NCBI GenBank assembly: GCA_045633405.1
Contig: JAZQYD010000058.1
Coordinates: 11,086-75,085 of the forward strand
DNA from: Eubacteriales bacterium
Lineage (GTDB): Bacteria > Bacillota > Clostridia > Oscillospirales > CAG-272
Reading direction: 5' to 3'
Length of the DNA stretch: 64,000 bases
Shown here: one piece after another, positions 5,073 to 57,956 of the stretch
Position numbering within the stretch: position 1 is the first letter of the stretch
How the letters are laid out: each line of letters starts with the position of its first letter
The notes under the pieces: model-generated
Databases searched by the model: none
What the model was told of the DNA's origin: nothing
What the model saw: only the letters and a program-made list of their open reading frames with translations
Translations under genes and position numbers: made by a program

Positions 5073-8000
5073 TTATTTGAAATACTTAACCATTGACTTA
5101 AACATCTTAATGTCGTAATCGCCGATCACGTTTCTGTAAAGACCGCGGTCAATACGCTCCGAGTGACCCATCTTACCGAAGACGCGTCCGTCGGGAGAGG
5201 TTATACCCTCAATCGCAAGGGTGGAACCGTTCGGGTTATAGTCGATACCGTAGGTAGCCTCACCTGCAAGATCAACGTACTGAGTTGCAATCTGTCCGTT
5301 CCTTATAAGCTCACGCACGGTCTCGTCGGATGCCAAGAACTTACCCTCACCGTGGGAGATCGGAACGTTATAGACCTCACCGACCTCGCAAAGAGAAAGC
5401 CAAGGAGACATATTCGATGCAATACGGGTCCTTACTATCTTCGACTGGTGGCGAGCGATGTTATTAAAGGTAAGGGTGGGACAGCTCTCATCGGTATCCA
5501 TGATCTTACCGAAGGGAACGAGTCCAAGCTTAACGAGTGCCTGGAAGCCGTTACAAATACCGCACATAAGACCGTCACGGCGGTCAAGAAGCTCACCTAC
5601 CGCCTCCTTAACGTCTGCACCGCGGAAGAATGCCGTAATAAACTTACCCGATCCGTCAGGCTCGTCACCGCCCGAGAATCCGCCGGGAACGAAGATCGCC
5701 TGCGACTCCCCTATCTTCTTAACGAAGGTCTCAGAGGAGCGTCTGATACCGTCACGGGTGAGGTTGTTGATAACGAAGATATCAGCATCAGCACCTGCAT
5801 CGGTAACCGCCTTAGCGGAATCGTATTCACAGTTCGTGCCGGGGAATACGGGGATAAGCACCTTAGGACGTGCAACCTTAACCGAGGGTGCCTTACGTGT
5901 CTTAGCCTCAAAGCTTACCGTCTCGACGGGAGCATCGGGGCTCTTGATATTGCAGGAGTATACACTCTCAAGCTTTCCTTCATAAGCCTCGGAAAGCTTG
6001 CAAAGCTCAACAGAAGCACCGTTATAGGAGATTGCGGGAGCGTCAGTAACCTCACCGATAACACGGCCAAGATCAACGTCAGAGGTCACCTCGAGGATGA
6101 ACGAGCCGTACTGATAGCCGAAGATATCGGAAAGAGTCATAGACTTATCAAATGCGAAGCCGAGACCGTTACCCATTGCCATCTTTGCGACAGCCTCTGC
6201 GACACCGCCAATGGTGGGTGTGTATGCGGAAAGAACCTTGCCCTCTCTCATAAGAGCAGTTACCTTATCGAAGGTCGCGATAAGAGACTCTCTCACGGGA
6301 AGACCCGACTCGGTATACTCGGGAGCTACAAGGATAACACGGCTTCCCGCCTTCTTAAGCTCGGGGGAAATTACGTTATTTATATTATCGGTAGTAACTG
6401 CGAAGGAGATAAGAGTGGGAGGAACGTCAAGCTTCTCAAAGCTTCCGCTCATCGAATCCTTACCGCCGATAGCGGCAACACCGAAGTCCATCTGTGCTGT
6501 AAATGCACCGAGAAGTGCCGAGAGAGGCTTGCCCCATCTCTTGGGATCCTTCATAGGCTTCTCAAAATACTCCTGGAAGGTAAGGTAGGTATCCTTAAAA
6601 TCAGCACCCGTGGCGATAAGCTTGGAGATAGACTCAACTACCGCAAGATATGCACCGTGATAGGGGCTCTTCTCGGAGATATAGGGGTTATAGCCCCATG
6701 ACATAAGAGAAACGGTGTCGGTATGTCCCTTCTCAACCGAGATCTTATGTACCATAGCCTGAATGGGAGTTCTCTGATATTTTCCGCCGAAGGGCATAAG
6801 TACCGTGCCCGCACCGATGGTGCTGTCGAATCTCTCGGAGAGTCCACGCTTAGAACAGCAGTTAAGGTCGCTGACTACTGCGGTAAGACCGTCCTCGAAG
6901 CTCTCGGGAATAGCCTTCTCAAAGCTCTCGCGGGACTTAGCCTCGATCTCGATATGCTTCTCTGCACCGTTGGAGTTAAGGAAGTCACGGCTGATATCAC
7001 AGATAACCTTGCCGTTCCATCTCATCGTGAGGCGTTCCTCACTCTTAACACGTGCGACAACGGTAGCCTCGAGGTTCTCGCTGTCTGCAAGCTCTAAGAA
7101 TCTGTCCTTATCAGAAGCCTCAACTACAACCGCCATTCTCTCCTGCGACTCACTGATCGCAAGCTCGGTGCCGTCAAGTCCGTCATACTTCTTGGGAACT
7201 GCATTGAGGTCGATATCGAGACCGTCAGCAAGCTCTCCGATAGCAACGGAGACTCCGCCCGCACCGAAATCGTTACAACGCTTGATCATCGAGGAGACCT
7301 CGGGATTTCTGAAGAGTCTCTGGATCTTTCTCTCCTCGGGAGCGTTACCCTTCTGCACCTCTGCACCGCAATTCTCGAGCGACTTGAGAGTATGCGACTT
7401 GGATGATCCGGTAGCACCGCCGCATCCGTCACGTCCCGTTCTGCCTCCGAGAAGGATAACGAGATCGCCGTCCTCGGGGCACTCTCTTCTTACGTTCTTA
7501 GCAGGAGCGGCGGCAATAACAGCACCGACCTCCATATGCTTAGCGGCATAGCCGTCGTGATAGATCTCATCAACAATACCCGTAGCAAGACCGATCTGGT
7601 TACCGTAGGAGGAATAGCCGGCCGCCGCAGTGGTGACGATCTTTCTCTGAGGAAGCTTGCCCTCAAGGGTCTCGTCAAGAGGACGGAGAGGATCTGCCGC
7701 ACCGGTAAGACGCATAGCACCGTAGACGTAGGAGCGACCCGAGAGAGGGTCTCTTATAGCTCCGCCGATACAGGTTGCCGCACCTCCGAAGGGCTCGATC
7801 TCTGTGGGGTGGTTGTGTGTTTCATTCTTGAAGAGGAGAAGCCAGGGCTCTTCCTTTCCGTCAACGTTCACGGTGATCTTAACCGTGCAGGCGTTGATCT
7901 CCTCGCTCTCGTCAAGCTTATCAAGCTTACCGAGCTTCTTCAAGCACTTGGCCGCAATCGTGCCTATGTCCATGAGGTTCTGAGGCTTGGTTCTGCCTAT

Positions 8001-8762
8001 CGACTCTCTTGCGGCAAGATATTCATTATACGCCTCCTCGATCTCCTTATCAAGGAAGGTAACCTTATCAATAGTGGTAAGGAAGGTGGTATGACGGCAG
8101 TGATCCGACCAATAGGTGTCGATCATTCTGATCTCGGTGATGGTGGGGTCACGGTTCTCCTTCACGAAGTAGTCCTGACAGAACTTGACGTCATCGATAT
8201 CCATAGCGAGTCCAAGCTCTGCAAGGAAGCTCTCAAGTCCCTCTCTGTCAAGCTTGGTAAAGCCGTCAAGCACACGCACCTCACTGGGAACCGTATACTC
8301 CTGCTTGATGGTGTCCTTAAGCTCGAGCGAAGCCTCACGTGCCTCAACGGGGTTGATAACGTGCTTCTTGATCTTCGCTATCTCTCCCTCGGTAAGCTTG
8401 CCGTAGAGCATATAGACTCTCGCACTTCTTACGTCGGGCTTCTCGCCCTGAGAGATGAGCTGAATACACTGAGCCGCAGAATCCGCACGCTGGTCAAACT
8501 GACCGGGAAGATACTCGGTGGCGAATACGTACGCACCGTCCGAGTCGAGCTCGGAATAGGTATTATCAAGCTGGGGCTCGGAGAATACCGCAGAGGTTGC
8601 GTAATCGAACAGCTCACGTGAGAGATTCTCCGCATCATATCTGTTTAATATTCTGACCTTCTCGACAGAGGAAATACCGAGGAAGGTCTCTATCTCGGAC
8701 CTGAGGGCTCTCGCCTCGTTATCAAGTCCTATCTTTTTCTCAACAAAAATACGGTAAACCAT
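5073..8762 (-). CDS. purL: Phosphoribosylformylglycinamidine (FGAM) synthase, single-chain large form
   Basis: 1229 aa. It has an N-terminal PurS-like region, duplicated AIR-synthase-like domains (NETHNHPTEIEPFGGAATCIGG) and a C-terminal glutaminase (GICNGFQAL, PISHGEGKF). Confidence 0.92.
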   Translation of the reverse strand: MVYRIFVEKKIGLDNEARALRSEIETFLGISSVEKVRILNRYDAENLSRELFDYATSAVFSEPQLDNTYSELDSDGAYVFATEYLPGQFDQRADSAAQCIQLISQGEKPDVRSARVYMLYGKLTEGEIAKIKKHVINPVEAREASLELKDTIKQEYTVPSEVRVLDGFTKLDREGLESFLAELGLAMDIDDVKFCQDYFVKENRDPTITEIRMIDTYWSDHCRHTTFLTTIDKVTFLDKEIEEAYNEYLAARESIGRTKPQNLMDIGTIAAKCLKKLGKLDKLDESEEINACTVKITVNVDGKEEPWLLLFKNETHNHPTEIEPFGGAATCIGGAIRDPLSGRSYVYGAMRLTGAADPLRPLDETLEGKLPQRKIVTTAAAGYSSYGNQIGLATGIVDEIYHDGYAAKHMEVGAVIAAAPAKNVRRECPEDGDLVILLGGRTGRDGCGGATGSSKSHTLKSLENCGAEVQKGNAPEERKIQRLFRNPEVSSMIKRCNDFGAGGVSVAIGELADGLDIDLNAVPKKYDGLDGTELAISESQERMAVVVEASDKDRFLELADSENLEATVVARVKSEERLTMRWNGKVICDISRDFLNSNGAEKHIEIEAKSRESFEKAIPESFEDGLTAVVSDLNCCSKRGLSERFDSTIGAGTVLMPFGGKYQRTPIQAMVHKISVEKGHTDTVSLMSWGYNPYISEKSPYHGAYLAVVESISKLIATGADFKDTYLTFQEYFEKPMKDPKRWGKPLSALLGAFTAQMDFGVAAIGGKDSMSGSFEKLDVPPTLISFAVTTDNINNVISPELKKAGSRVILVAPEYTESGLPVRESLIATFDKVTALMREGKVLSAYTPTIGGVAEAVAKMAMGNGLGFAFDKSMTLSDIFGYQYGSFILEVTSDVDLGRVIGEVTDAPAISYNGASVELCKLSEAYEGKLESVYSCNIKSPDAPVETVSFEAKTRKAPSVKVARPKVLIPVFPGTNCEYDSAKAVTDAGADADIFVINNLTRDGIRRSSETFVKKIGESQAIFVPGGFSGGDEPDGSGKFITAFFRGADVKEAVGELLDRRDGLMCGICNGFQALVKLGLVPFGKIMDTDESCPTLTFNNIARHQSKIVRTRIASNMSPWLSLCEVGEVYNVPISHGEGKFLASDETVRELIRNGQIATQYVDLAGEATYGIDYNPNGSTLAIEGITSPDGRVFGKMGHSERIDRGLYRNVIGDYDIKMFKSMVKYFK

Positions 8763-8765
8763 CAG

Positions 8766-10034
8766 TTATCCTTTCTTCGCCATAAGGGCACGTCTGCCGA
8801 TATCGTTTCTGAAGTAAGCGTTATCAAAGCTTACCCCTTCTACCTTTTTGTAGGCAAGAGCGATAGCATTCTCAAGTGTCGCATCCACAGCGGTTACACC
8901 GAGCACACGTCCGCCTGCAGTAAGAAGCTTATCTCCGTCAAGCTTAGCACCCGCTACGTACACGGAGGGCTTGACGCTCTCGTCGATATTGATCTCATAT
9001 CCGCTCCTATATGCCTCGGGATAGCCGTCAGATGCCATTATTACACAGCACGCACTCTTCTCAGAGAACTTAACCTCGCACTCAGAGAGACGTCCCTCTG
9101 TGCACGCACGCATTATATCAAAAAGATCGCTCTCAAGAAGAGGAAGGACTACCTGAGTCTCGGGGTCGCCGAAGCGGCAATTGTACTCAATAACCTTGGG
9201 GCCGTCCTTAGTAAGCATAAGTCCGAAGTAAAGACATCCGCGGAACTCCCTGCCCTCAGCCTTCATTGCATTGATGGTAGGAAGGAATATCGTCTTCATA
9301 CATTCATCGGCAATAGCATCGGTGTAATAGGGGTTGGGAGCGACCGTGCCCATACCGCCCGTATTAAGTCCCTCATCGTTATCCTTCGCACGCTTATGAT
9401 CCATAGAGGAGATCATGGGCTTCACGGTAGTGCCGTCTGTAAATGCAAGAACGGAAACCTCAGGTCCCTCGAGGAACTCCTCGACTACGATGCGGCTGCC
9501 GCTCGCACCGAATTTACCGTCCTCCATCATACTCTTGACGGCAGAAAGAGCATCCTCACGGCACTCAGCAATGATTACACCCTTACCGAGTGCGAGTCCG
9601 TCCGCCTTAACAACAGTGGGGATGGGTGCGGTTTCGAGATATTTGTAGGCATCCTCGGCTCTCTCGAACACCTCGTAGCGAGCAGTGGGAATACCGTACT
9701 TTTTCATAAGATTCTTCGAGAATACCTTACTACCCTCGATGATAGCGGCACACGCACGGGGGCCGAAGCAAGGAATGCCGATCTCCTCCAAGCGGTCAAC
9801 GCATCCGAGAACAAGGGGATCGTCGGGTGCGACAACAGCATAGTCTATCTTCTCCTTTGCCGCGAACTCCGAGATCTTATCAAGATCCTTAGCACCGATG
9901 GGCACGAGAGTCGCTTCATCCTTCATTCCGCCGTTACCGGGGAGGGCGAAGATCTCGTCTATTTCTTTGTTTTCTCTAAGCTTTTTAATGATGGCGTGCT
10001 CTCTTCCGCCGCCACCTACAACCATTACCTTCAT
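8766..10034 (-). CDS. purD: Phosphoribosylamine--glycine ligase
   Basis: 422 aa. MKVMVVGGGGREHAI..., ATP-grasp core and GPKVIEYNCRFGDPETQ. Confidence 0.92.
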   Translation of the reverse strand: MKVMVVGGGGREHAIIKKLRENKEIDEIFALPGNGGMKDEATLVPIGAKDLDKISEFAAKEKIDYAVVAPDDPLVLGCVDRLEEIGIPCFGPRACAAIIEGSKVFSKNLMKKYGIPTARYEVFERAEDAYKYLETAPIPTVVKADGLALGKGVIIAECREDALSAVKSMMEDGKFGASGSRIVVEEFLEGPEVSVLAFTDGTTVKPMISSMDHKRAKDNDEGLNTGGMGTVAPNPYYTDAIADECMKTIFLPTINAMKAEGREFRGCLYFGLMLTKDGPKVIEYNCRFGDPETQVVLPLLESDLFDIMRACTEGRLSECEVKFSEKSACCVIMASDGYPEAYRSGYEINIDESVKPSVYVAGAKLDGDKLLTAGGRVLGVTAVDATLENAIALAYKKVEGVSFDNAYFRNDIGRRALMAKKG

Positions 10035-10049: not shown

Positions 10050-11234
10050 TCAGTGATGGAAAAGACGCATACCGGTGAACGCCATAACCATTCCGTACTT
10101 GTTACAGGTATCGATAACCACGTCGTCACGGACCGATCCGCCGGGCTCAGCGATATAGGATACACCGCTCCTCTTCGCTCTCTCGATGTTGTCACCGAAG
10201 GGGAAGAACGCATCAGAGCCGAGAGAAACACCGCTTATCGTATCGAGGTAGGCTCTTGCCTCCTCATCAGTGAGGGGCTCGGGACGCTCGGTGAAATACT
10301 TCTGCCAGTTGCCCTCAGCACAAACGTCCTCCTCGTTCTTGTTGATGTAACCGTCGATGACGTTATCTCTGTCAGGACGGGAGATGGTGGGGAGGAAAGG
10401 AAGGTCAAGGACCTTCTTGTACTGACGGAGATGCCAGGTGTCAGCCTTAGTGCCCGCAAGTCTTGTACAGTGGATTCTGGACTGCTGTCCTGCACCGACA
10501 CCGATAGCCTGTCCCTTGTATGCGTAGCATACGGAGTTCGACTGAGTGTACTTAAGAGTAATAAGGGCGATGATGAGGTCGCGTCTTGCCTCATCGGTGA
10601 GCTCCTTATTCTCGGTTACGATATTGGCGAAGAGCTCGTTCGAGATCTCGAAGTTGTTTCTTCCCTGCTCGAAGGTAATGCCATAGACCTGCTTCGACTC
10701 GATGGGAGCGGGAACGTAATCGGGATCGATCCTTACAATGTTATAGTTGCCCTTCTTCTTGGTCTTAAGAACCTCGAGAGCCTCGTCGGTATAGCCGGGA
10801 GCGATGATACCGTCGGAAATCTCTCTCTTAATAAGAAGAGCGGTGGTGAGGTCACATACGTCGGAGAGAGCGATCCAATCTCCGAAGGAGGACATTCTGT
10901 CAGTACCTCTTGCTCTTGCGTATGCACAAGCGAGAGGGGATTCGTCAAGTCCCTCGATATCGTCTACGAAGCAGGCACGCTTAAGCTCGGGTGAGAGCGG
11001 AACGCCTACTGCTGCGGAGGTGGGGCTGACGTGCTTGAAGGAGGTAGCCGAGGGGAGACCTGTCGCCTCCTTCAGCTCCTTGACAAGCTGCCAGGAGTTG
11101 AATGCATCGAGGAAATTGATATATCCGGGTCTGCCCGAAAGGATCTCAATAGGAAGATCAGTGCCGTCCTGCATATATATTTTGGAAGGCTTCTGATTGG
11201 GGTTACAGCCGTATTTAAGCTCAAACTCTTTCAT
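10050..11234 (-). CDS. purH: AICAR formyltransferase (PurH transformylase domain only, no MGS-like IMPCH domain)
   Basis: 394 aa. MKEFELKYGCNPNQ..., SFKHVSPTSAAVG, and a C-terminal AEPGGSVRDDVVIDTCNKYGMVMAFTGMRLFHH typical of AICARFT. Confidence 0.85.
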   Translation of the reverse strand: MKEFELKYGCNPNQKPSKIYMQDGTDLPIEILSGRPGYINFLDAFNSWQLVKELKEATGLPSATSFKHVSPTSAAVGVPLSPELKRACFVDDIEGLDESPLACAYARARGTDRMSSFGDWIALSDVCDLTTALLIKREISDGIIAPGYTDEALEVLKTKKKGNYNIVRIDPDYVPAPIESKQVYGITFEQGRNNFEISNELFANIVTENKELTDEARRDLIIALITLKYTQSNSVCYAYKGQAIGVGAGQQSRIHCTRLAGTKADTWHLRQYKKVLDLPFLPTISRPDRDNVIDGYINKNEEDVCAEGNWQKYFTERPEPLTDEEARAYLDTISGVSLGSDAFFPFGDNIERAKRSGVSYIAEPGGSVRDDVVIDTCNKYGMVMAFTGMRLFHH

Positions 11235-11244
11235 TTTCTATACC

Positions 11245-11961
11245 TCACACGTTCTTATTAATGATTCTGGTGTCTGCCTCGCCTGTCTTAAGATCGATAT
11301 ATCTTACGAAGAGCGAGACCTTATTGTCCTCGTTAAGGTTTACCCAGATATGCTCTGCAAGAGAGTCTATATCCGTATCGGGGAGAATGAGAGTCTTGGG
11401 CTCTCCCTCGAAGGAAGGAAGCGGATCTCCCTCGGAATTGTAGGTGTGAATGAACTTGGCACGTCCGGGGATGGGATTCGAATATGCATAGGTGAATCTC
11501 TCGCAGGACGAATCGTCTCCCTCTGCACTCTTGAGAATGGAGAGAGCAAAGTTCATATCGCCACACTCACGGCGGATAATACCCGAAATTCTGGGGGTGA
11601 AGTTGGGCTTATCGTCCTCGAACTCTCTTGTTCTCAGTGCCTGCTCGAAGGTCATCTGCTTGTCCATAAGATCGTAGATGGTATCGGTCTGGTCGCCGTT
11701 TGTAACGATGGTCTTGTTACCGAGAACTCTTACGGGGTAGTAAATAATAAGATGAGGGTCTACCATTTTCGACTCATCAAATGCCTTGGTACGCATATTC
11801 TCGCCCTCAGCGACAAACACACGGTTACGGCTGTTTACGCTTCTGCCCATAATGAAATAAGCAGTTACCGCATATCTTGCGTCGGCACTCTTACCGATAA
11901 TTATTCCTCTGCCGTGGTAGGCGAGAGAATTAAGCTCTGACTCAATAGTTGTGACCTTCAT
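11245..11961 (-). CDS. IMP cyclohydrolase, PurO-like (stand-alone)
   Basis: 238 aa. Its position between purN and the AICARFT-only purH, and its length and sequence style (AYHGRGIIIGKSADARYAVTAYFIMGRSVNSRNRVF), fit the stand-alone IMP cyclohydrolase family seen next to split purH in Clostridia. Assigned from memory, not by a search. Confidence 0.65.
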   Translation of the reverse strand: MKVTTIESELNSLAYHGRGIIIGKSADARYAVTAYFIMGRSVNSRNRVFVAEGENMRTKAFDESKMVDPHLIIYYPVRVLGNKTIVTNGDQTDTIYDLMDKQMTFEQALRTREFEDDKPNFTPRISGIIRRECGDMNFALSILKSAEGDDSSCERFTYAYSNPIPGRAKFIHTYNSEGDPLPSFEGEPKTLILPDTDIDSLAEHIWVNLNEDNKVSLFVRYIDLKTGEADTRIINKNV

Positions 11962-11962: not shown

Positions 11963-12601
11963 TTATTCTCCTTTTATATGTACTCTGTTGTTTTCGACCG
12001 AGATTTTTCCGTCACAGAAGAGCTTAACTGCAAGGGGGAGTATCTTCCACTCAGCCTCCTCCATAATTCTCCTCTGGAGAGTCTCGGGGGTGTCATCCTC
12101 ACGTACGTCTACCGCACGCTGAAGAACGATGGGACCCGCATCACATTCGGGGGTGACAATATGCACGGTTGCACCCGATACCTTAACTCCCTTCTCAAGT
12201 GCCGCCTCATGGACAGCGAGACCGTAATAGCCCTTGCCTGAGAACGAGGGGATAAGAGCGGGATGAACGTTCAGTATTCTGTTAGGATATGCGTTATAGA
12301 CCTGCTCGTCGATGATAGTAAGGAAGCCTGCAAGAACAACGAGGTCTATCTCATTTTCACGAAGCCTTTCGACAAGTGCGAGAGAGTAATCTCTGATATC
12401 GGGATATTCCTTTCTCGGTATAACAACCGAGGGAATCGAATGGTTTTTCGCACGCTCGAGTGCATACACGCCCGCCTTAGAGGATATGACAAGCTCAATT
12501 TTTCCGCATCCGAGCTCGCCTCTCTCACCCGCATCGATCAGGGCCTGAAGATTAGTGCCGCCGCCCGATACGAGAACGGCTATTCTGCAAGTTCTCTCCA
12601 T
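11963..12601 (-). CDS. purN: Phosphoribosylglycinamide formyltransferase
   Basis: 212 aa. IAVLVSGGGTNLQALIDA, ILNVHPALIPSF and TVHIVTPECDAGPIV. Confidence 0.9.
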   Translation of the reverse strand: MERTCRIAVLVSGGGTNLQALIDAGERGELGCGKIELVISSKAGVYALERAKNHSIPSVVIPRKEYPDIRDYSLALVERLRENEIDLVVLAGFLTIIDEQVYNAYPNRILNVHPALIPSFSGKGYYGLAVHEAALEKGVKVSGATVHIVTPECDAGPIVLQRAVDVREDDTPETLQRRIMEEAEWKILPLAVKLFCDGKISVENNRVHIKGE

Positions 12602-13647
12602 CAGCCGAGCACCACACCCTCGTCGCCTTTGACGATCTCACCGATAACGTACGCCTCCTCGCCCGAAGCGGTAAGGATCTCAAGTGCGGTATCGACGTCC
12701 TCACGGGACACAACGATGCTCATTCCGACACCCATATTGTAGGTGTTATACATATCCCTCTCGGGAATGTTGCCCACTTTGGCGATAAGATCGAAGATAG
12801 GAAGCACACGAACGCTTGCCTTATCTATCTTAGCCATAAGACCCTTGGGAATGGATCTCGGGATATTCTCGTAGAAGCCGCCGCCTGTGATATGGCTGAT
12901 TCCCTTCACCTTCACGGACTCGAGGAGCTTAAGAACGCTCTTAACGTAGATCTTGGTGGGGGTAAGGAGAGTCTCGGCAACGGACTTGCCGCCAAGAGCA
13001 CCGCAGGGGATATAAAGTGTATCGGGGTTATGATCAATGTCGAACACACGGCGGACGAGCGAGAAGCCGTTGGAGTGAACTCCCGAGGATGCGAGAGCTA
13101 TAACGACGTCCCCCTCCTTCATGGTCGAGTTGTCAATCATCTTCTTTTTATCAACAATACCTACCGCAAAGCCTGCGAGGTCATAGTCCTCGAGGGGCAT
13201 AAGACCGGGATGCTCCGCAGTCTCGCCTCCGATAAGTGCCGCACCCGACTGAACACAGCCCTCTGCAACACCGCCTACGATGGAGGCGATCTTCTCGGGG
13301 TAGTTCTTACCGCATGCAATATAGTCAAGGAAGAAGAGAGGGCGTGCACCGCAACAAATAATATCGTTAACGCACATAGCAACTGCGTCAATACCGATAG
13401 TATCGTGCTTGTCCATCAGAATTGCCATCTTTACCTTAGTACCGCATCCGTCAGTGCCCGAAACAAGCACAGGCTCCTCGATGCCCGCAAGGTCGAGACC
13501 GAAGCATCCTCCGAAGCCGCCGATGTCCTGATCGGCACCCTTTGTAACAGTTCTTGCGATGTGAGCCTTCATAAGCTCAACAGCCTTATAGCCCGCAGTA
13601 ATATCAACGCCGGCTGCCGCATAGCTTTCAGATTTCGAATTTTTCAC
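12601..13647 (-). CDS. purM: Phosphoribosylformylglycinamidine cyclo-ligase (AIR synthetase)
   Basis: 348 aa. YAAAGVDI, GGFGGCFGLD, VSGTDGCGTKV. Stop/start overlaps with both purF and purN. Confidence 0.92.
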   Translation of the reverse strand: MKNSKSESYAAAGVDITAGYKAVELMKAHIARTVTKGADQDIGGFGGCFGLDLAGIEEPVLVSGTDGCGTKVKMAILMDKHDTIGIDAVAMCVNDIICCGARPLFFLDYIACGKNYPEKIASIVGGVAEGCVQSGAALIGGETAEHPGLMPLEDYDLAGFAVGIVDKKKMIDNSTMKEGDVVIALASSGVHSNGFSLVRRVFDIDHNPDTLYIPCGALGGKSVAETLLTPTKIYVKSVLKLLESVKVKGISHITGGGFYENIPRSIPKGLMAKIDKASVRVLPIFDLIAKVGNIPERDMYNTYNMGVGMSIVVSREDVDTALEILTASGEEAYVIGEIVKGDEGVVLG

Positions 13648-15059
13648 TTGACACTCTCACTTTCCGATATTTTTCTATCAAATTTATTATCAATCTTTTC
13701 GGGAATCTCGGTCGGATATTTACCGTTGAAGCAGGCGGCACAGTAGCCCTTGCACTTGCCCGACTCACCGAGACGGAACACGTCCTCGAGGCGGAGGTAT
13801 GCGAGCGAATCCGCACCGACTATCCTGCCGATCTCCTCGACAGTGTGATGGTTGGCGATAAGAGCCTCCTTCGAGTCGATATCCGTGCCGTAATAGCAGG
13901 GATTGAGGAAGGGTGGAGCGGATGAGCGGAGATGCACCTCGGTGGCACCTGCACTTCTGAGAAGCCTTACTATTCTCGCCGAGGTAGTACCTCTGACGAT
14001 GGAGTCATCGACGAGCACCACTCTCTTGCCCTTAACCGCACTGATTATGGGGTTGAGCTTTATCTTGACCTTATCCTCACGGACGTCCTGACCGGGAGCG
14101 ATGAAGGTTCTGCCTATGTATTTATTCTTTATGAGTCCTATGGCATAGGGGATGCCCGATGCCTCGGCATATCCGAGAGCGGCATCGAGTCCCGAATCGG
14201 GAACGCCTACCACAACGTCGGCGTCAACGGGGTGAGCCTTCGAGAGGAGTGCACCCGCACGCTTTCTCGCCTCCTGCACGGAGCAATCGCATATATACGA
14301 GTCGGGGCGGGCGGTGTATACGTACTCGAAGACACAGAGTGCCTCGGGCTTCTTACCGCAGTGGTCGCGGATAGACTTTATTCCGTCCTCGGAGAACACG
14401 AGGATCTCGCCCGGATCAAGCTCACGGATGAAGGTAGCTCCTACCGTATCAAGAGCACAGGTCTCGGTCGCTACAACGTACTGACCGTTATCTCTCTTAC
14501 CGTAGCAAAGAGGATGCATTCCCATCTCGTCTCTTGCCGCAATAAGCTTTCTCGGCGACATGAGCAAGAGGTTGAAGCCTCCGGAGAGCGAGTTCATGGC
14601 TCTGTTGACCGCCTCCTCGATCGAGGGTGCGGAAAGTCTCTCGCTTGTGATAACGTAGGAGATAAGCTCGGCATCCGAGGTGGTGTGGAATATCATTCCG
14701 CGAAGCTCGAGTGCATGGCGAAGCTTATCTGCATTGACGAGTCTGCCGTCGGTAGCAAGTGCCAGCCTACCCTTTATGTGGTTAACTACTATCGGCTCGG
14801 CGTTAGCTCTGCCCTTAGTACCGAGTGTACCGTAGCGGCAGTGACCGATGGCCATTGTTCCCTCACCGAGGTCCTTGAGAGTCTCTCTTGAGAAAACGTC
14901 GTTTACAAGTCCCGAATCCTTATGGCTGGTAAAGAGTCCGTCATCGCCTACAACAATTCCCGCACTCTCCTGACCTCTGTGCTGAAGAGCATAAAGACCG
15001 TAGTACACGCTCGAGGCAACGTTTCCTCTTTCATCTCCAATAATTCCAAATATACCCAT
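13644..15059 (-). CDS. purF: Amidophosphoribosyltransferase homologue lacking the N-terminal catalytic Cys
   Basis: 471 aa. Collinear with PurF (LQHRGQESAGIV, VGVPDSGLDAALGYA, VVLVDDSIVRGTTS, Fe-S Cys in ALCVFEY/NPCYYG/CKGYCAAC). It begins MGIFGIIG instead of (M)CGIFGI, and HNGNLVN reads TDGRLVN. See findings. Confidence 0.85.
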   Translation of the reverse strand: MGIFGIIGDERGNVASSVYYGLYALQHRGQESAGIVVGDDGLFTSHKDSGLVNDVFSRETLKDLGEGTMAIGHCRYGTLGTKGRANAEPIVVNHIKGRLALATDGRLVNADKLRHALELRGMIFHTTSDAELISYVITSERLSAPSIEEAVNRAMNSLSGGFNLLLMSPRKLIAARDEMGMHPLCYGKRDNGQYVVATETCALDTVGATFIRELDPGEILVFSEDGIKSIRDHCGKKPEALCVFEYVYTARPDSYICDCSVQEARKRAGALLSKAHPVDADVVVGVPDSGLDAALGYAEASGIPYAIGLIKNKYIGRTFIAPGQDVREDKVKIKLNPIISAVKGKRVVLVDDSIVRGTTSARIVRLLRSAGATEVHLRSSAPPFLNPCYYGTDIDSKEALIANHHTVEEIGRIVGADSLAYLRLEDVFRLGESGKCKGYCAACFNGKYPTEIPEKIDNKFDRKISESESVK

Positions 15060-15074
15060 TGTTTATTCTCCGTT

Positions 15075-15569
15075 TTATACGTTGAACTTTTCTTCGACTG
15101 CCTTATTCTTCTCGAGCACCTTATCGCATCCTGCCTTGCGTGCCGCTTTAAGAGCCGCATTGAGCGAGGGCTCGGAGAGGGCTAAGATCTCGATAGCGAG
15201 CATAGCGGCATTAGCCGCACCGTCAATAGCAACGGTAGCTACGGGAATGCCGGAGGGCATCTGAACCGTGGCAAGAAGTGCATCCATTCCTCCCGTATTC
15301 TTACAGGAGATCGGGATACCTATGACGGGAAGGACCGTATTTGCGGCAACCGCACCCGCTAAGTGTGCCGCCATACCTGCTGCGGCAATAATTACTCCAA
15401 AGCCGTTATCCTCCGCACTCTTCACAAACTCCGCACACTCGACGGGAGTTCTGTGTGCAGAATAAACGTGCACCTCAAAGGGAACTCCGTATTCCCTCAA
15501 AACACCTATTCCCTTCTCCACGATGGGAAGATCGCTGTCGCTACCCATAAGAACGGCTACCTTTTTCAT
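15075..15569 (-). CDS. purE: N5-carboxyaminoimidazole ribonucleotide mutase (class I PurE)
   Basis: 164 aa. VLMGSDSDLP, SAHRTP, AAAGMAAHLAG, VIGIP. Confidence 0.9.
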   Translation of the reverse strand: MKKVAVLMGSDSDLPIVEKGIGVLREYGVPFEVHVYSAHRTPVECAEFVKSAEDNGFGVIIAAAGMAAHLAGAVAANTVLPVIGIPISCKNTGGMDALLATVQMPSGIPVATVAIDGAANAAMLAIEILALSEPSLNAALKAARKAGCDKVLEKNKAVEEKFNV

Positions 15570-15582: not shown

Positions 15583-15698
15583 TAAAAATAAAATAAGGGC
15601 GAACTTACCCCATAAAGGTAAGTGAGCCCAGACGGTCGACTATAACACGTTTTTGCTCCCATGCGGTCACGTCCGCTTATCCGTCAGTTGCAAAAACC
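15583..15698 (-). promoter_or_regulatory. ZTP (pfl-motif) riboswitch with intrinsic-terminator expression platform
   Basis: Minus strand: P1 GUUUUUGC / GCAAAAAC; core ACUGACGGAUAAG-CGGacgugaCCG-CAUGGGAGC; 3' element CGACCGUCUGGGC. Consensus is ACUGGCGG...CCGCCUGGGC, and here a compensatory G>A / C>U pair is kept in the pseudoknot. The GGGC then takes part in the terminator GGGC-tc-ACTTACC...GGTAAGT-tc-GCCC followed by TTATTTTATTTTT (15630-15583). Confidence 0.8.
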
Positions 15699-15710
15699 TT
15701 TACCGCAACT

Positions 15711-15810: not shown

Positions 15811-17148
15811 TCAGGGTCTCAGCGTGAGAACGTAGACCTCGTTTTTGCCCACCCTCAGCTTTATCGACCTTCCGAATGGCACGTCCTTGGCACCCGTAGT
15901 AAAGCCGCGGCCTCTCTCACCGCCTCCGAGTATGCCCTCGATATCGTAGTGTCCGAAGCTATGCCCCGACGGATTGATCTCAAGGATACCCTCATAGTCA
16001 CGGGTGGCTATGATCACACGTCCGTCATTTTCGGTAACTGCCGAAAGGCTGTAAATCTCTCTTCTGTAATCCTCAGTCGCATCCACAAGGAAAGCTCCCT
16101 TTGCAAGCTGACCGAATGCTCTCATAACGTTGTAGGGTGCGTATCTGTGGAGTGTACGTCTGTCATCAAGCGAGTATAGGGCATTTCTTGGAGAAAGGGG
16201 GTGGGTGTCGCTGTAAAACATCATAGAAATGTCCGATTTCGCAGCACCTATGAGACATGCGGCCAAAAGAGCGGGATAACGCTTATCCTGATATTCGGAA
16301 TATTTTTCTCCCACCGTCGGCAAAAAAGCAGAGACAATACTCTCGGTCTTCTTAAAGCCGTAATGGTTAAGATACGAGCGTGCATAGCTCGAGTGAAGGA
16401 TCAGCTCCTCAGGCGACTCGGGACCGCATTTCCAGCTGAGGAAATCGAGGGGAGGCCGGGGATCGCTTTTCATTATGTATGAGAGGAAGCTCTCAAGATA
16501 GCTGACGTAATTCTTCTCCTTCTCGGAGAGTCCGAAATGATTAAGCGATGCGAAGCCTCCCGCAGAGTAAGCTCCGACCTTGATTCTCGGGAAATATTTC
16601 TTTATTTCGAGAGAAACCGTCTTATAAAGCTCAAAATATTCCTCGGGCGAAGAGAAGAAGCCGTACGAGTCATCGGGCGACTGCCATATCTCTACCCTTT
16701 TTATACCGAGCTTGAAGCCTCCTGCAAAGCCCTGGTTGCAATGGGCAATCACACGTGAAAGGATATATGCCATACGCTCATAAGGCATGGGTGTGCGAAG
16801 ATAATGTCTCTTGCCAATCGGAAGAGGAGACTCGCCGAGTCTGAGAACGATTTCCGCACCGATCGATTTCATATCGGACAGAGCACGGTCGAGCTCTTCA
16901 AAATTATATGAGCCGACAAACCTCTCATCGAGCGAAGGATCGGGGAAAATCTCATGTAGGTCGAGGGGGATGGTTCCCTCCCCGTCACGCGAGGAGAAAA
17001 GCACGGCCGGAGCAGACAGCTCTCCGTACACGTCGGTTAGTGAGAACGAAACGCACGGATCATAGACGGGCATGCCCAGCATGCCGTTTACAGGCTTTAT
17101 TTTGCCGCATTTGTGAGAAAAGTCAATATCAATTCTGCGAGTTATCAA
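15811..17148 (-). CDS. Clan GH-A (GH39-like) TIM-barrel protein, putative; probable TTG start
   Basis: The track ORF runs to 17202, but AAAGGAGAG followed by TTG (caa at 17146-17148) is a better start. The sequence pattern IKPVNGM...LDLHEIFPD...YNFEELD...GAEIVLRLGES...RVEIWQSPDD...YFELYK...KVGAYSAGG resembles GH39-like leaderless hydrolases. The usual NEP acid/base motif reads QSP. Confidence 0.45.
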   Translation of the reverse strand: MITRRIDIDFSHKCGKIKPVNGMLGMPVYDPCVSFSLTDVYGELSAPAVLFSSRDGEGTIPLDLHEIFPDPSLDERFVGSYNFEELDRALSDMKSIGAEIVLRLGESPLPIGKRHYLRTPMPYERMAYILSRVIAHCNQGFAGGFKLGIKRVEIWQSPDDSYGFFSSPEEYFELYKTVSLEIKKYFPRIKVGAYSAGGFASLNHFGLSEKEKNYVSYLESFLSYIMKSDPRPPLDFLSWKCGPESPEELILHSSYARSYLNHYGFKKTESIVSAFLPTVGEKYSEYQDKRYPALLAACLIGAAKSDISMMFYSDTHPLSPRNALYSLDDRRTLHRYAPYNVMRAFGQLAKGAFLVDATEDYRREIYSLSAVTENDGRVIIATRDYEGILEINPSGHSFGHYDIEGILGGGERGRGFTTGAKDVPFGRSIKLRVGKNEVYVLTLRP

Positions 17149-18118
17149 GAGTCTCTCCTTTCTCGGGGATAGGAGCGGGAGACGCATATGACCATCCCTC
17201 ACCGTTTATCTCATGTGCACGGTGCACGGTAACGAATGCCCTCTTATCAACAGCTGCTACAATAGCGGTAAACTCGGCATACTGTGATACAGAGAAGGTT
17301 GTCATCAAAAGCTGCTTATCATCGCCCGAATATCCGCCCTTGCAGGGGATGATGGTCGCCGTACGGTCGAGCCTCGAAATAATGGATTCGTTAATATCGT
17401 CACACCTATCGGATATAACGTAGGCGGTAAGTGCCATGGACTCACCGATGAACAGCTTATCGATGGCCAAGGCGGCAATGAAAGCAGACAGAATACCGAG
17501 AAGCGAGACAATGAGATCGCCAATGGCAAACATACCTAATACAATAACGAGGGAATCGCACAAAAACATAGATGCAGAGCTCTTCATCGACTTGAAATAC
17601 TTAGAAATAATGAGAGCCAGAACGTCGATACCTCCGGTCGAGCCGCCGCCAATGAAGGTAATAGCACAGCCCGCACCGATCATAGCACCGCCGAATACTG
17701 CCGCAATAATAACGGGGAGCTCGCCATATGAGGAATACAGCTCGGAATGAAAATTGAAGAAGCCGCCAAAAGCACTTCCCTCAGACAGTGACACCGCAAG
17801 TGCGAGTGCAAGAGGATAAACGAGGGTCGAGACGAGCGTATTCGCCGCAAAAGACTTACCGAGGAGGATGAAGCCTAAAACAAAGAGCATCCAGTTAAAT
17901 ACCGACGCATAAAAGGTGGCACTGAAAAGGGACAGAAAAGGAATGAATGAAAAAGCCTTCTCTGCTATAATACCAAGACCCGAAACGCCTCCGTTAACCA
18001 AGTCAAACGGGATGATAAAAAGACCTGTTCCAAATGCAAGAACAAACGTACCTACAACAACAAGCACCGTATTTCTTACGTGATCGATGATCTTGCCTGA
18101 TCCAAGCTTTATTTTCAT
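17129..18118 (-). CDS. YitT-family membrane protein (DUF161 x2 + DUF2179-like C-terminal domain)
   Basis: Start trimmed to MKIKLGSGKIIDH..., preceded by GGAGGGAAG. FIIPFDLVNGGVSGLGII, a second GGSTGGIDVLALII repeat, and a soluble C-terminal domain (TVHRAHEINGEG). Confidence 0.8.
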   Translation of the reverse strand: MKIKLGSGKIIDHVRNTVLVVVGTFVLAFGTGLFIIPFDLVNGGVSGLGIIAEKAFSFIPFLSLFSATFYASVFNWMLFVLGFILLGKSFAANTLVSTLVYPLALALAVSLSEGSAFGGFFNFHSELYSSYGELPVIIAAVFGGAMIGAGCAITFIGGGSTGGIDVLALIISKYFKSMKSSASMFLCDSLVIVLGMFAIGDLIVSLLGILSAFIAALAIDKLFIGESMALTAYVISDRCDDINESIISRLDRTATIIPCKGGYSGDDKQLLMTTFSVSQYAEFTAIVAAVDKRAFVTVHRAHEINGEGWSYASPAPIPEKGETLDNSQN

Positions 18119-18355
18119 ATTCTTCCCTCCTATCGTGCATATTCCTTGAATTTTATCAGCAGTATATATTCTAATATAAATTTTAATCAAAGTCAAGATG
18201 GCAGCTTCTCAAACCTAGAGAATTTTTTTGCGTCCAAAGCATTTATATGTAAACAGTTATTTGCATTATACCCTCTTCCCCACAAGTTATTCTTCACACG
18301 GGTAGGCACATAAGACTATTTTTCGTTTTTCGTCAAAACATATCAAAATTTACAG

Positions 18356-18640: not shown

Positions 18641-18715
18641 GCCTCCGTAGTAAAGTGGATATTACAAGTCCCTCCTAAGGATTAGTCGTGGGTTCGATTC
18701 CCGCCGGGGGTGCCA
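18641..18715 (+). tRNA. tRNA-Arg (anticodon CCT), CCA encoded
   Basis: Manual cloverleaf. Acceptor GCCTCCG / CGGGGGT (two G-U pairs), D-arm GTAA-agtggata-TTAC, anticodon arm AGTCC-CT CCT AA-GGATT, T-arm GTGGG-TTCGATT-CCCGC, discriminator G, CCA. Confidence 0.85.
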
Positions 18716-18752: not shown

Positions 18753-19031
18753 AGCATTTTGGTAAATCATTTGATGAGACAATTTTCAAGAAAGCAACCA
18801 GAGTGGCTCGCCATCTAAATTTTCGTTCGAATAGTCTAATTCGTTTTGACTGATCGGTAATTGCCATCCATTCGAAATCATTGTTTCAGGAACCCCCCTT
18901 TTTTTTTAACCTTTTTTCACAAAAAGCTACAATCTATGCCAAAAAAATCCCTTTTATGCCAAAGTTAACAACTTTGTACATATATTTGCTAGTATATTAT
19001 CAGTAAATATTTTTTGAAAGGATATTACAAA

Positions 19032-22000
19032 ATGAGAAAAAACTTTCTAATCATTTTCCTAACACTTGCTCTTTTGGCCGGTCTTTTTGCCGCTATCGGC
19101 TTCTCCGGCATTAATGCAAGTGCTGAGGAAACAGAGCCCGCAGATTCTACTCATACACACTGCGTCTGCGGAGTAGAGCATAAAAGTGTAGGTGACCACA
19201 CACTGTTGGAAGCCGTCACCTTCTCTCCCTGGAACGGTACGGATGAAATAATCTATACCGACAACGTGGCTTACCTTTATCTTACGAATGACGTAAAGTT
19301 AACTCAAACACTTGTCGTAGACAACGGTAATACGCTTTATTTATGCTTAAACGGATATAAGCTATCTACTACCAAATTCTCGATCGGTATCAACAAGTAC
19401 ACAATCTACGCTGACGTCGGCAACATTACCATTACCGATTGCGGCAATACCGAGCGTGTCGGTTATATCGATACCGATGCTACTTATAGCCGTTGGGTTG
19501 AAGGAACACCCACCGATGCAACGGACATTGCTTATACACTGAGTGGCGGTCTTATCGGAAACGGCAACGAAGTTGATATTATCCGCGGTTTCCAAGCTGA
19601 AATTAAATTATACGCAGGAAACATCGCGGGCTCTGCGGGCGGCATCGACGCAGGCCAGTCAACCGTCCATATGTATGGCGGACACATAGTTGGTAACGCA
19701 AGCAAATCCAGCGGTGTAGGCATGAATTTATCCTCTCCGGTTCTGGTAAATATATGCGGCGGTACTATTGCATACAATACTGCTGCTCTCTCCAGCAGCT
19801 CTGATACAGCAGGCGGTGCCGGCATATATATTGATGACTTCCAGGGAGACGTTAACATCTCAAACGTCACTATTGAAAACAACAAGGTTAAAAAAGCACA
19901 GGGTGGCGGTATCTTTATTTACAGAGGCGTCAACGGCGACGTCACCATCAATAACGTAACCCTCAGAAATAATTCAGCTGTCTCGGGCGGCGGCATCACC
20001 ATAAAATCGATTGGTGCGACCGCCAAATCCGGTGTCACAGTTACAAAAGACGTTGCTATCAAGATTAACAATTCTCTATTTACCGGTAACACCGCAAGCG
20101 ACTCCGGAGGAGGCTTGAGAATAGAAAGCTGTACAAACTACTCTACTATCACGCTTAGCGGTACGCAGATCGTAGGCAACACCGCGACAAAAGACGGCGG
20201 CGGTATCTATTTAAAGCAAAACTACTCCTATTGTGCCATAAAGCTTGAATCAGCAGTAATAACAAACAACCATGCAGGCACCACCGGTGGTGGCGTTGGC
20301 AGCTATTCATCCAACGACCTTCATTTAGGCGAGGGCGTGATCCTCATCCAGGATAACACAGGAGGAGCCGATAACATAGCCTCAAACCTCTATCTCTCCA
20401 ACATAGTTTTTAAGAGAGACTGTGATCTTGCCTTAGGCACAAGAATAGGACTGTCGATAAAGGATACCACAACCTACGAAATTTCGACTGTCGAGACGTT
20501 ATCCGAGTCCCTTGAGCCTCAATTACACGCCTTTTTCAGCGATGATCCTAACTACCACGTCGGTATTTATAAAACCACCTCTGCAAAAAAGGTGAGCGTA
20601 ATAAGAAATGACGCTCATATTCATTGCCTTTGCGGAAATGAAGACGCAGCTATCTGCCCGAACACGGGTGGAAATCACTTAAGTTATAACTTTGGAAAAC
20701 CCATTACAACACTTGAAGAGTTTCTTAATGCTTGTCAGGTGGGCGGAAACTATCATCTCGCGGAGGATATTGAGGTTCCCGATATGAGTGACCAAACTAA
20801 CTTCCAATACGGAGTCGAGGTCAATCAGACCCTGCACCTCTGCCTTAATGACCACGTTATGTCAAGAGGCGACCGTATGTATTCTGACGATGCATCGTTT
20901 ACACTCACCGACTGCGGCTCGACTCGCCGTTACTATGACGTGAATGATGACGGCACTTGGACTATGAAGGATTCCGGCACCCTGACTATGAGAGCATCCG
21001 ATACGTCGATATACTATACCGATGGCGGTGTAATGTATTACATTGGATCGGATATAGACACAGGCTTTTCAGTTGCAAAAAAAGCTCCATTTACTATGTA
21101 CGGGGGCAATATCGTTGGATTCACTAACTCCGGTGTTGAATTGAAGTCATCCGGTACATGGGGCGGATTTACAATGTATGGCGGTGCAATTAAAGGCAAC
21201 ACTAATAAAGGCAATCCTACACAAGAGAAGGATCCCTCCACAGGCTACACTGTTTACGGCGGCGGAGGCGGAATTTATTCCAATAATTCGTACGTCACCA
21301 TAAACGGTGGTGAGATCTCCTACAATACAGCCAAGAACGGCGGCGGAGTATATCTTTACAATTCAGGCAATACCTTTACAATGAATGGCGGAGTAATTGC
21401 AAACAACCATGCAACATCCAGCGGTGAGGGAATCTCCGGCGGTATTGCAAGCTACAACTATACCACCACAATTGGCGAGGATGCAGTTATTACGAACAAC
21501 ACCTCAGGTTCTAAGTACGACGTTACCGTAACAGCACCCGAAAACGGCACGGTATCTGTTTCTCACAGCACTGCCGCTGAGGGAGCGACCGTAATAATCA
21601 CACCTACCCCGAACAAAGACTATGAGGTTGGTGTTGTCACAGTTACGTATTCGGACGGTTCTTGTGAGGTTACAAGCCTTTCCGACGGCACGTTCAGCTT
21701 CGTAATGCCGAACACAGCGGTTTCTATCAGTGCAACGTTCACGGAAGTCACAATCTATCCCGTATACATTGGTGGCGTCCAGTTCACGAAGGACAATCCC
21801 GTTATCAACGGTGACACAGGTACTGCAACGTATGACCACGCAACCAAAACACTGACTCTCGATAACTTCTCGATCTCAGGAGATATGCCGGAAATCTACG
21901 GTTTCTCCGGCGTCATTTTTGCAGAGGGCGATCTTAATATTGTACTTATCGGCGATAATACCCTCATCAATACGTCAGAGGTCGACACACTATTCACCGC

Positions 22001-23956: not shown

Positions 23957-23986
23957 CTAGTCAATCAATCTTTTTTGGAGGTTACG

Positions 23987-46135: not shown

Positions 46136-46170
46136 GGGCAGACACGACCGTGTCTGCCCTTTTTGTTTTT
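46136..46170 (+). terminator. Rho-independent terminator (plus strand; the hairpin is shared with the convergent GH20-like gene)
   Basis: GGGCAGACAC-gacc-GTGTCTGCCC followed by TTTTTGTTTTTT. Confidence 0.85.
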
Positions 46171-50214: not shown

Positions 50215-50225
50215 TTATACTCCAA

Positions 50226-52091: not shown

Positions 52092-52117
52092 ATTTTCTCC
52101 TTTTCAAATGACACCGA

Positions 52118-53974: not shown

Positions 53975-53997
53975 TTTTCTGCTCCTTCGTAAAATAA

Positions 53998-54052
53998 GGC
54001 TGTCCCGAAAAGACGCTTTTATTTCACGAGGCTGTCTTTTCGGGACAGCCTC
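53998..54052 (-). terminator. Terminator / attenuator-like element between paralogues 4 and 3 (two mutually exclusive hairpins)
   Basis: Minus strand: hairpin A is GAGGCTGTC-ccgaaaa-GACAGCCTC (54052-54028). Hairpin B is GGCTGTCCCGAAAAGAC (54050-54034) pairing with GTCTTTTCGGGACAGCC (54014-53998), followed by TTATTTTA. B uses both arms of A. Confidence 0.55.
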
Positions 54053-54062
54053 GATTTTACTT

Positions 54063-55928: not shown

Positions 55929-55943
55929 TTTTAAATCTCCTTA

Positions 55944-57782: not shown

Positions 57783-57819
57783 CAGCGATACCTCCTTAAA
57801 TATTTTACTTTACAAGGTT

Positions 57820-57848
57820 ATTATACCGAAATTCCTTTACAGCGTCAA
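57820..57848 (-). promoter_or_regulatory. Sigma-A-type promoter of paralogue 5
   Basis: Minus strand: TTGACG (57848-43), 17 nt, TATAAT (57825-20). Confidence 0.75.
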
Positions 57849-57909
57849 GAGAATTCGCCAATTTAGGAGTAAAACTTTTTTGGGCAACATTACCAAAGAT
57901 TTGGTTAAT

Positions 57910-57956
57910 ATATACAAAGAAGCACGACTACCGCAGATGTTTCTTGGTAGTCGTGC
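57910..57956 (-). terminator. Rho-independent terminator after paralogue 6
   Basis: Minus strand: GCACGACTACC-13 nt-GGTAGTCGTGC followed by TTCTTTGT. Confidence 0.7.

Follow-up and report, generated by a model that had tools for sequence, protein, structure and literature searches.

The committed step of purine synthesis is catalysed by PurF, a textbook class II glutamine amidotransferase whose N-terminal cysteine (Cys1) is regarded as invariant and serves as a check on gene calls. In the N-terminal nucleophile (Ntn) mechanism, the thiol and the free alpha-amino group of Cys1 are indispensable; the canonical phosphoribosyl pyrophosphate (PRPP) amidotransferase is able to use ambient NH3 as well. 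Replacements of Cys1 in the Escherichia coli enzyme abolished the use of glutamine and left the NH3-dependent synthesis of phosphoribosylamine (PRA) in place (Mei and Zalkin 1989, as summarised in PMC3261824). Among natural proteins, the closest described parallel is the crenarchaeal PurF' (Brown et al. 2011, PMC3261824), a Cys-less protein whose gene lies among purine genes and for which ammonia-dependent PRPP aminotransferase activity was hypothesised. PurF' forms a separate paralogous cluster and is always accompanied by a nearby canonical PurF (PMC3261824). Here, we analysed a purF gene without a Cys1 codon, which lies in the pur operon of a Eubacteriales bacterium, on a 64-kb stretch of contig JAZQYD010000058.1 (the window, meaning the whole of the DNA analysed). 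An earlier interpretation of its letters alone (the sequence-only reading) had taken the product for a naturally glutaminase-dead and probably NH3-dependent PurF. No bacterial orthologous Cys-less PurF was described in the literature searched, the coverage of which was limited and is not proof of absence.

The PurF Protein and Its Missing Nucleophile

The purF open reading frame (ORF) begins with ATG GGT ATA TTT GGA, its ATG occupying positions 15059-15057 of the window, and is preceded in frame by ACA and then TAA. In the alignment to Bacillus subtilis PurF (1AO0; E = 2.5e-132), Gly2 of the window protein lay opposite Gly2 of the B. subtilis enzyme. The match to the family model TIGR01134 scored 474.9 bits against a cut-off of 350 and paired profile positions 2-432 of 432 with residues 2-449. 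As Gly2 is paired with Gly2 in these alignments, Met1 fills the Cys1 position, with zero residues to spare. Three claims of the sequence-only reading were thereby upheld: that the ORF is collinear with amidophosphoribosyltransferase, that the Cys codon is missing from the MGIFGI start and, from the reading of the sequence itself, that the upstream TAA bars a longer N-terminus.

The oxyanion motif was also altered. The B. subtilis segment LALAHNGNLVN pairs with LALATDGRLVN in the window protein (LATDGRLVN, residues 101-109, 14733-14759), such that the oxyanion Asn-Gly reads Asp104-Gly105. The family-model alignment, proposed earlier as a check, gave a match above the cut-off; in the columns to be inspected, Cys1 and the oxyanion Asn were absent and the pocket Arg and Asp residues were present. 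The remainder of the protein was intact. The motifs VVLVDDSIVRGTTS, ALCVFEY, NPCYYG and CKGYCAAC are present, and the Fe-S ligands C242, C388, C440 and C443 correspond in the 1AO0 alignment to B. subtilis C236, C382, C437 and C440.

An AlphaFold model of the protein had a mean predicted local distance difference test score of 87.3, and its sole very low-confidence stretch was residues 314-329, which we take to be the mobile loop of the phosphoribosyltransferase (PRTase) domain. Comparison of the model with 1AO0 by Foldseek gave template modelling (TM) scores of 0.86/0.89, with 47% identity in the structural alignment. The Ntn fold of the glutamine domain was recognised by matches to PF13537 and PF13522 and by the similarity of the model to the GlmS glutaminase domain 1XFF (TMt 0.85). 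The window protein is a PurF by descent, fold and PRTase features. As a class II (Ntn) amidotransferase, it has the fold and lacks the N-terminal Cys nucleophile. With both Cys1 and the oxyanion Asn gone, it is no glutamine amidotransferase by the known Ntn mechanism and is therefore not to be filed as a glutamine-dependent EC 2.4.2.14 enzyme. Glutamine-dependent PRA synthesis is predicted to be absent, as the nucleophile is missing.

Occurrence among Related Genomes

A set of 195 distinct close homologues (the clade) was assembled from the 120 best database proteins (76-94% identity) and 80 genome loci (68-85% identity). The loci (L001-L080) came from a genome scan with one genome per GTDB species, in which the best 80 of 534 relatives were kept. 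The canonical comparators were 112 PurFs, all picked for possessing Cys1. A Cys-less start of the form M-[G/S/A]-[VILF]-F-G was present in 195/195 homologues, including the 80 GTDB species representatives; the survey of related Clostridia suggested in the sequence-only reading thus showed Cys-less starts of this type to be fixed in the clade, over at least 80 species-level genomes. The nearest outgroup proteins had Cys at the Cys1 position in 116 of 119 cases. With the diagnostic columns removed, a neighbour-joining tree placed all 74 of the Cys-less sequences included (74/74) in one clade, in 100/100 bootstraps. The repetition of the same start over 195 sequences rules out a sequencing error.

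In all 80 loci, the ATG is followed directly by a Gly, Ser or Ala codon; most have a close in-frame upstream stop, and most have a GGAG-like Shine-Dalgarno sequence at a similar spacing. A longer N-terminus or another start was considered and rejected, given the upstream stops in the window and most relatives, and no locus had a usable Cys. In one locus (L063, Candidatus Scatosoma), the sequence TAG TGT ATG GCN was noted just 5' of position 1155, in which a Cys codon abuts the start, behind a stop. This TGT may be what is left of the Cys1 codon of the ancestor, or may be due to chance.

Other cysteines were also considered as the nucleophile. Cys74 of the window protein (HCRY) is variable in the clade, and Cys234 is common to the canonical sister PurFs and is therefore unconnected with the loss of Cys1. 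Residue 163 was Cys in only 146/201 sequences and is Asn in the window protein.

All of the 80 related genomes are metagenome-assembled genomes (MAGs), most of them from the gut of roe deer, water deer, goat, sheep or yak, in agreement with the gut or rumen setting suggested previously. They are labelled as Clostridia, Eubacteriales or Oscillospiraceae bacterium, 'uncultured Ruminococcus' or Candidatus Scatosoma. The last name is carried by a few of the MAGs, and the epithets of its named species point to chicken faeces.

The exact window protein had no record in the contig index. A search against representatives at 50% identity gave no full-length representative of the clade among the matches listed; the nearest was a 63% fragment with HNGN, and its relatives were ordinary canonical PurFs. 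Outside the clade, at least 8 of 150 PurF cluster representatives (50% identity clusters; 38-50% identity) also lacked Cys1, namely P0129, P0187, P0222, P0240, P0242, P0178, P0147 and P0175. Their starts were of the forms M-S-G-, ..DE-S-G-, ..EE-G-G- and MFG-. Asp was present at the oxyanion Asn position in the four caught by a motif search (P0129, P0187, P0222 and P0147), and the oxyanion Asn was retained in P0178 and P0175. These sequences suggest that the loss of the PurF nucleophile is recurrent in nature.

Residue Conservation and Selection

The 195 clade sequences were compared with the 112 canonical PurFs, in which approximately 75 columns were at least 90% conserved. In B. subtilis numbering, the clade departed from these only at C1, G2, Q85E, N102, S193, F243T and, mildly, L180. 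The Cys1 column was Met in 195/195, and position 2 was Gly in 134, Ser in 35 and Ala in 26. Q85E (Glu88 of the window protein) was Glu in 195/195, compared with Gln in 110/112 canonical sequences, and F243T (window Thr249) was present at 100%. The substitution of Arg178 by His was likewise fixed. The oxyanion Asn column (N102) held Asp in 71, Asn in 29, Ala in 28, Ser in 24, Glu in 16 and Cys in 12 of the 195, compared with 99% Asn in the canonical PurFs; the following Gly was kept in 193/195. The earlier statement that HNGN is altered therefore stands, TDGR being confirmed in the window protein, with the refinement that the oxyanion column is relaxed in the clade and not replaced by one fixed substitute. 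The second Asn of NGN was also freed of constraint, as was the S193 column, an invariant Ser in canonical PurF.

The residues of the glutamine pocket were kept. R28, R75 and Y76 (B. subtilis R26, R72 and Y73) were present in 195/195 and D129 (B. subtilis D127) in 189/195, and G27 (B. subtilis numbering) was also within the 97-100% conserved set. The PRPP loop residues D351, D352, S353, V355, R356, G357 and T359 were each present in 195/195, as were R327 and K334 of the flexible loop and the four Fe-S cysteines. Together with the motifs and the 1AO0 alignment, these counts bear out the previous claim that the PRTase motif and the Fe-S cysteines are intact.

Relative to the near sister group, 20 of the 28 relaxed or switched sites were located in the glutamine domain (window residues 1-3, 80, 84, 88, 104, 106, 114, 130, 132, 133, 135, 161-164, 182 and 198). 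The ratio of glutamine-domain to PRTase-domain divergence was 1.40 within the clade, compared with 0.94 in the sister. Over 38 pairs (dS 0.05-1.2), the ratio of nonsynonymous to synonymous substitution rates (dN/dS) had a median of 0.065 in the glutamine domain and of 0.054 in the PRTase domain. The site pattern and the dN/dS values thus show that the catalytic apparatus of the glutaminase has been released from selection, while the domain as a whole, including the glutamine-binding residues, is still constrained.

Genomic Context and Ancestry

The position of purF inside a pur operon, as stated in the sequence-only reading, was confirmed (Table 1). The purE stop lies 15 nt 5' of purF, and the purF TGA stop and the purM GTG start overlap as GTGA. 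The order purE-purF-purM-purN-(purO-purH)-purD-purL was found in 78/81 loci, as far as the contigs reach, and the remaining three have purC immediately before purF. The sister operon, represented by two assemblies (L081 and L082), has the order purE-purC-purF-(474-aa gene)-purM-purN-purO-purB-purH-purD-purL. In the nearest outgroup, ordinary clostridial PurFs carry a short propeptide followed by Cys, e.g., MAGLREEC/GVFG, where the slash marks the end of the propeptide and Cys. The canonical sister PurFs were up to 67.8% identical to the window protein, equalling the most distant Cys-less members. On these alignments and gene orders, the window gene is judged to be the ortholog by descent of the clostridial housekeeping purF.

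In the sister, the upstream sequence and start read aacggagaaatat ATG GCA GGT CTG AGA GAA GAG TGC GGT GTT TTC, and in the window aacggagaataaaca ATG GGT ATA TTT. The window and the sister are similar upstream of the start, including the Shine-Dalgarno sequence. An in-frame deletion of seven codons, covering the propeptide and Cys1, would therefore be the simplest origin. The founding deletion would appear to have removed GCA GGT CTG AGA GAA GAG TGC, joining the old ATG and Shine-Dalgarno sequence to Gly2.

Table 1. Features of purF and of the pur operon in the window (nucleotide positions; all on the minus strand).
Feature	Position	Strand	Basis or remark
Cys1-less purF, 471 aa	13644..15059	-	Glutamine domain about residues 1-236, PRTase domain about residues 237-455
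N-terminus MGIFG (protein start MGIFGIIG)	15045..15059	-	Met1 in the Cys1 column, Gly2 = Gly2
Shine-Dalgarno GGAG, 8 nt ahead of the purF ATG	15068..15071	-	Sequence reading
In-frame TAA, two codons 5' of the purF start	15063..15065	-	Excludes a longer Cys-bearing N-terminus
Glu88, clade-fixed Gln-to-Glu in the N-x-Q-P motif (glutamine domain)	14796..14798	-	Clade versus canonical columns
ATDGRLVN replacing the AHNGNLVN oxyanion motif; Asp104 for the oxyanion Asn	14733..14756	-	Alignment to 1AO0
PRPP-binding loop VVLVDDSIVRGTTS	13980..14021	-	Motif reading; clade conservation
Span with the four [4Fe-4S] ligands C242, C388, C440, C443	13731..14336	-	Aligned to 1AO0
ZMP/ZTP riboswitch aptamer, pur operon leader, 5' of purE	15619..15701	-	Rfam RF01750, 58.3 bits versus gathering score 39
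purE (N5-carboxyaminoimidazole ribonucleotide mutase), first operon gene	15075..15569	-	TIGR01162, 183.6 bits
purM, GTG start	12601..13647	-	TIGR00878, 426 bits
purN	11963..12601	-	TIGR00639, 196.6 bits
PurO-like inosine monophosphate (IMP) cyclohydrolase, weak assignment	11245..11961	-	NF003167, 51 bits, under the cut-off of 150
purH, 5-aminoimidazole-4-carboxamide ribonucleotide formyltransferase-only form	10050..11234	-	NF005492, 684.8 bits
purD	8766..10034	-	TIGR00877, 512.5 bits
purL, single-chain formylglycinamidine ribonucleotide synthase	5073..8762	-	TIGR01857, 1859.9 bits

A second purF-like sequence was searched for by tblastn in the 64-kb window and in up to 10 kb on each side of the gene in the 80 loci, to the extent permitted by the contig, and none was found (one match each). 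No extra glutaminase gene was present in the operon. The class I glutaminase nucleophile motif of PurL, GICNGFQ (residues 1068-1074), is intact. The loss is thus specific to PurF, and the organism has not given up glutamine as a nitrogen donor generally. The riboswitch was also identified before purE in four of the six relatives tested (L004, L022, L043 and L064); in L034, L073 and the sister L081, there was no match at the gathering score.

The 474-aa gene of the sister operon encodes a PurF paralogue with the start MGGFFG and lies between purF and purM (L081:4210-5634, plus strand; also L082:4150-5574). The protein lacks QHRGQ, RY and NG and keeps VDDSIVRGT, and scored 166 bits with TIGR01134 against the cut-off of 350. 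Cysteines are present near the Fe-S ligand positions, an equivalence judged by eye. Its best 120 database matches were 80-100% identical, almost all exactly 474 aa long, and carried the NCBI name 'amidophosphoribosyltransferase'. No description of this family was found in the literature searched. As a Cys-less PurF paralogue, very divergent yet highly conserved within its family, it is a bacterial analogue of PurF', widespread in Clostridia.

The formation of IMP is split over two window genes (10050-11961, minus strand), encoding the formyltransferase-only PurH and the PurO-like protein. The gene at the PurO-equivalent position of the sister locus carries PF07826, its likeness to the window gene being one of operon position. 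Two genes of the sister operon, purC and purB, are absent from the window operon; in some relatives, purC is divergent and upstream.

Additional Genes

Upstream of the operon, a 463-aa ORF (15811-17202, minus strand) had no confident family, with a weak GH39 match (E = 0.006). The ORF is conserved on the same strand upstream of purE in approximately 27/81 related loci, often with a gene for a YitT-family membrane protein (17129-18196). The 463-aa ORF was considered as a homologue of the sister 474-aa gene and found to be unrelated (BLASTP E = 0.74). A single tRNA gene (18641-18712, plus strand; RF00005, 57.4 bits) lies between the YitT-like gene and a gene for a 1592-aa repeat protein (19014-23792, plus strand) with InlB B-repeat/Flg_new, DUF4988 and C-terminal collagen triple-helix repeats. 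Judging from these domains, the 1592-aa protein is probably surface-located. It is followed by a gene for a 596-aa protein of 12 MORN repeats (23975-25765, plus strand).

Six tandem paralogous ORFs of 611-635 aa were identified at 48379-59890 (minus strand), three of them with weak matches to the heparinase II/III C-terminal domain. The array is flanked by a GH20 hexosaminidase-like gene (46170-48338) and by a 1020-aa ORF without a family match (59992-63054), and looks like an expanded glycan-lyase array.

Discussion

The window protein is probably a functional, glutaminase-dead, ammonia-dependent PRA synthase, catalysing PRPP + NH3 -> PRA + pyrophosphate. This reading was reached from sequence comparison and from analogy with the E. 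coli Cys1 mutants, whose retained NH3 activity, cited in the sequence-only reading, agrees with the summary in PMC3261824. The proposal of a naturally glutaminase-dead PurF is supported by the fixation of the loss in the clade, by the release of constraint at the glutaminase catalytic positions and by the retention, under strong purifying selection, of the PRPP site, of the Fe-S ligands and of the place in the operon.

A Gly, Ser or Ala at the second position favours methionine aminopeptidase. Met1 would thus probably be cleaved off, leaving a thiol-less N-terminus, on which the glutamyl-thioester could not form. The empty glutamine pocket and the interdomain channel may give NH3 access to PRPP, a route already proposed for the NH3 activity of canonical PurF. 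The NH3 may be supplied as free ammonia, which is plentiful in the contents of the rumen and hindgut. Retention of the glutamine domain would be explained by its Fe-S ligand, its part of the channel and its interdomain coupling residues. Bypassing glutamine would spare the ATP of glutamine synthetase for each PRA made.

Several observations weigh against an ammonia-dependent enzyme. The near-complete conservation of R28, R75, Y76 and D129, with the low dN/dS of the glutamine domain, is more constraint than a structural remnant seems to need. The fixed E88 and the strict conservation of the pocket are not fully explained by the use of ammonia; the pocket may thus still bind a ligand. The NH3 dependence of the clade enzymes is itself argued by analogy with the E. 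coli mutants, and all clade members are MAGs, in which the search for a second purF spanned the window and the flanks described above. Furthermore, related Clostridia hold a second, very divergent Cys-less PurF paralogue beside the canonical purF, and PurF-like proteins in these organisms can therefore have other roles.

Among the other explanations, the only serious one is that the protein is an accessory or regulatory PurF-like subunit, comparable with PurF' or the 474-aa paralogue, acting together with a canonical, glutamine-dependent PurF whose gene lies at another site in the genome. Cys-less paralogues do coexist with canonical PurF in Crenarchaeota (PMC3261824), the sister clostridial operon also holds one, and the incomplete genomes were searched near the locus. 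However, the gene stands in the orthologous purF position and shares 67% identity with its canonical neighbours, whereas the known paralogue is only approximately 31% identical. Every conserved PRTase and Fe-S residue is kept at a dN/dS of approximately 0.05, no second purF-like gene was detected in the regions searched, and the divergent paralogue of the sister is absent from these loci. An accessory role is therefore considered unlikely. Very unlikely, in our view, is the continued use of glutamine or another amide, either through an unconventional nucleophile such as an N-terminal Ser or through a partner glutaminase feeding the pocket and channel. It would account for the 97-100% conservation of Arg75, Tyr76, Asp129 and Arg28 and the strong purification of the glutamine domain, and some members do have Ser after Met. 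Against this, position 2 varies, so that there is no conserved nucleophile, and it aligns to Gly2, one register off Cys1; the oxyanion Asn is relaxed, the operon lacks an additional glutaminase gene, and, according to the summary in PMC3261824, the E. coli C1S and C1A enzymes were reported to be inactive with glutamine.

Pseudoenzymes have typically lost a catalytic residue, and function was judged here from sequence; an inactive protein, or one with a function other than PRA synthesis, would fit these facts. It is nevertheless slightly more improbable still, given that the PRPP-site residues and Fe-S ligands are all invariant, the PRTase domain is under strong constraint (dN/dS 0.054), the position between purE and purM is kept in all but the three loci with purC directly before purF, the riboswitch leader is shared by the window and most of the relatives tested, and the operon otherwise has no enzyme for the first step. 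The chance that the missing TGT or TGC codon is an artefact of sequencing, assembly or start-site calling is negligible. The loss of 3 nt would suffice to produce it, and mis-called purF starts are known in archaea (PMC3261824), but the start recurs in 195 independent sequences from many studies and assemblers, with the start contexts of 80 loci checked, and it is accompanied by correlated changes elsewhere, E88 and T249 being fixed and N104 relaxed.

The ammonia-dependent PRA synthase thus remains the preferred reading. A further-reaching proposal, which we put forward tentatively and regard as doubtful, is that this gene could be the only PRA-forming enzyme of a large uncultured lineage of gut Clostridia, whose purine synthesis would be obligately ammonia-dependent, and that the constrained pocket might be repurposed, e.g., as an entry port for NH3/NH4+ or as a sensor of glutamine or nitrogen status. 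The intact Arg, Tyr and Asp residues of the pocket, the fixed Gln-to-Glu change and the dN/dS of the domain are the grounds for such repurposing. If true, the clade would offer a natural example of a class II amidotransferase domain in which the chemistry has been uncoupled from the channel and allosteric roles.

An ammonia-dependent enzyme would link purine synthesis directly to the ammonia of the gut lumen, which bears on nitrogen use in the rumen and hindgut, and the clade would then provide a natural glutaminase-free PurF for the study of ammonia entry, channel formation and interdomain signalling. The implied chemistry is already known from mutants; what is unusual, and would be unexpected for an amidotransferase specialist, is the natural orthologous loss, in which a whole herbivore-gut lineage has deleted Cys1 from the operon gene with the rest under strong selection. 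The name 'amidophosphoribosyltransferase' given by annotation pipelines, which implies the glutamine reaction (EC 2.4.2.14), is probably wrong for the clade and for the 474-aa family.

In comparison with the canonical [4Fe-4S] PurF of B. subtilis and Clostridia (1AO0, 1GPH), the window protein has the same two-domain fold, PRPP loop, four Fe-S cysteines, pocket Arg, Tyr and Asp residues and operon slot. It differs in having neither propeptide nor Cys1 and in the relaxation of the oxyanion Asn and several neighbouring invariant residues, and its clade has fixed Glu for Gln85, His for Arg178 and Thr for Phe243. The E. coli Cys1 mutants, as far as they are summarised in PMC3261824, share the thiol-less N-terminus and would serve as a functional model; they are, however, laboratory-made variants of an Fe-S-free enzyme, whereas the loss described here is natural, extends over at least 80 species and is joined by further changes at the glutamine site. 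The crenarchaeal PurF' likewise has no N-terminal Cys. In contrast to it, the window protein is bacterial, falls beside the canonical clostridial PurFs in the tree and occupies the purF slot, with no canonical copy within the available sequence. The 474-aa clostridial paralogue is also Cys-less and is found in pur operons of gut Clostridia, but shares only approximately 31% identity with the window protein, in which QHRGQ and RY are retained; the paralogue adjoins a canonical purF and occurs neither in the window nor in the related loci. AsnA and the single-domain NH3-dependent NadE are ammonia-dependent counterparts of amidotransferases in which glutamine is bypassed. In these enzymes, the glutaminase domain is wholly absent or the fold is unrelated, whereas the window protein keeps the whole glutamine domain under strong purifying selection.

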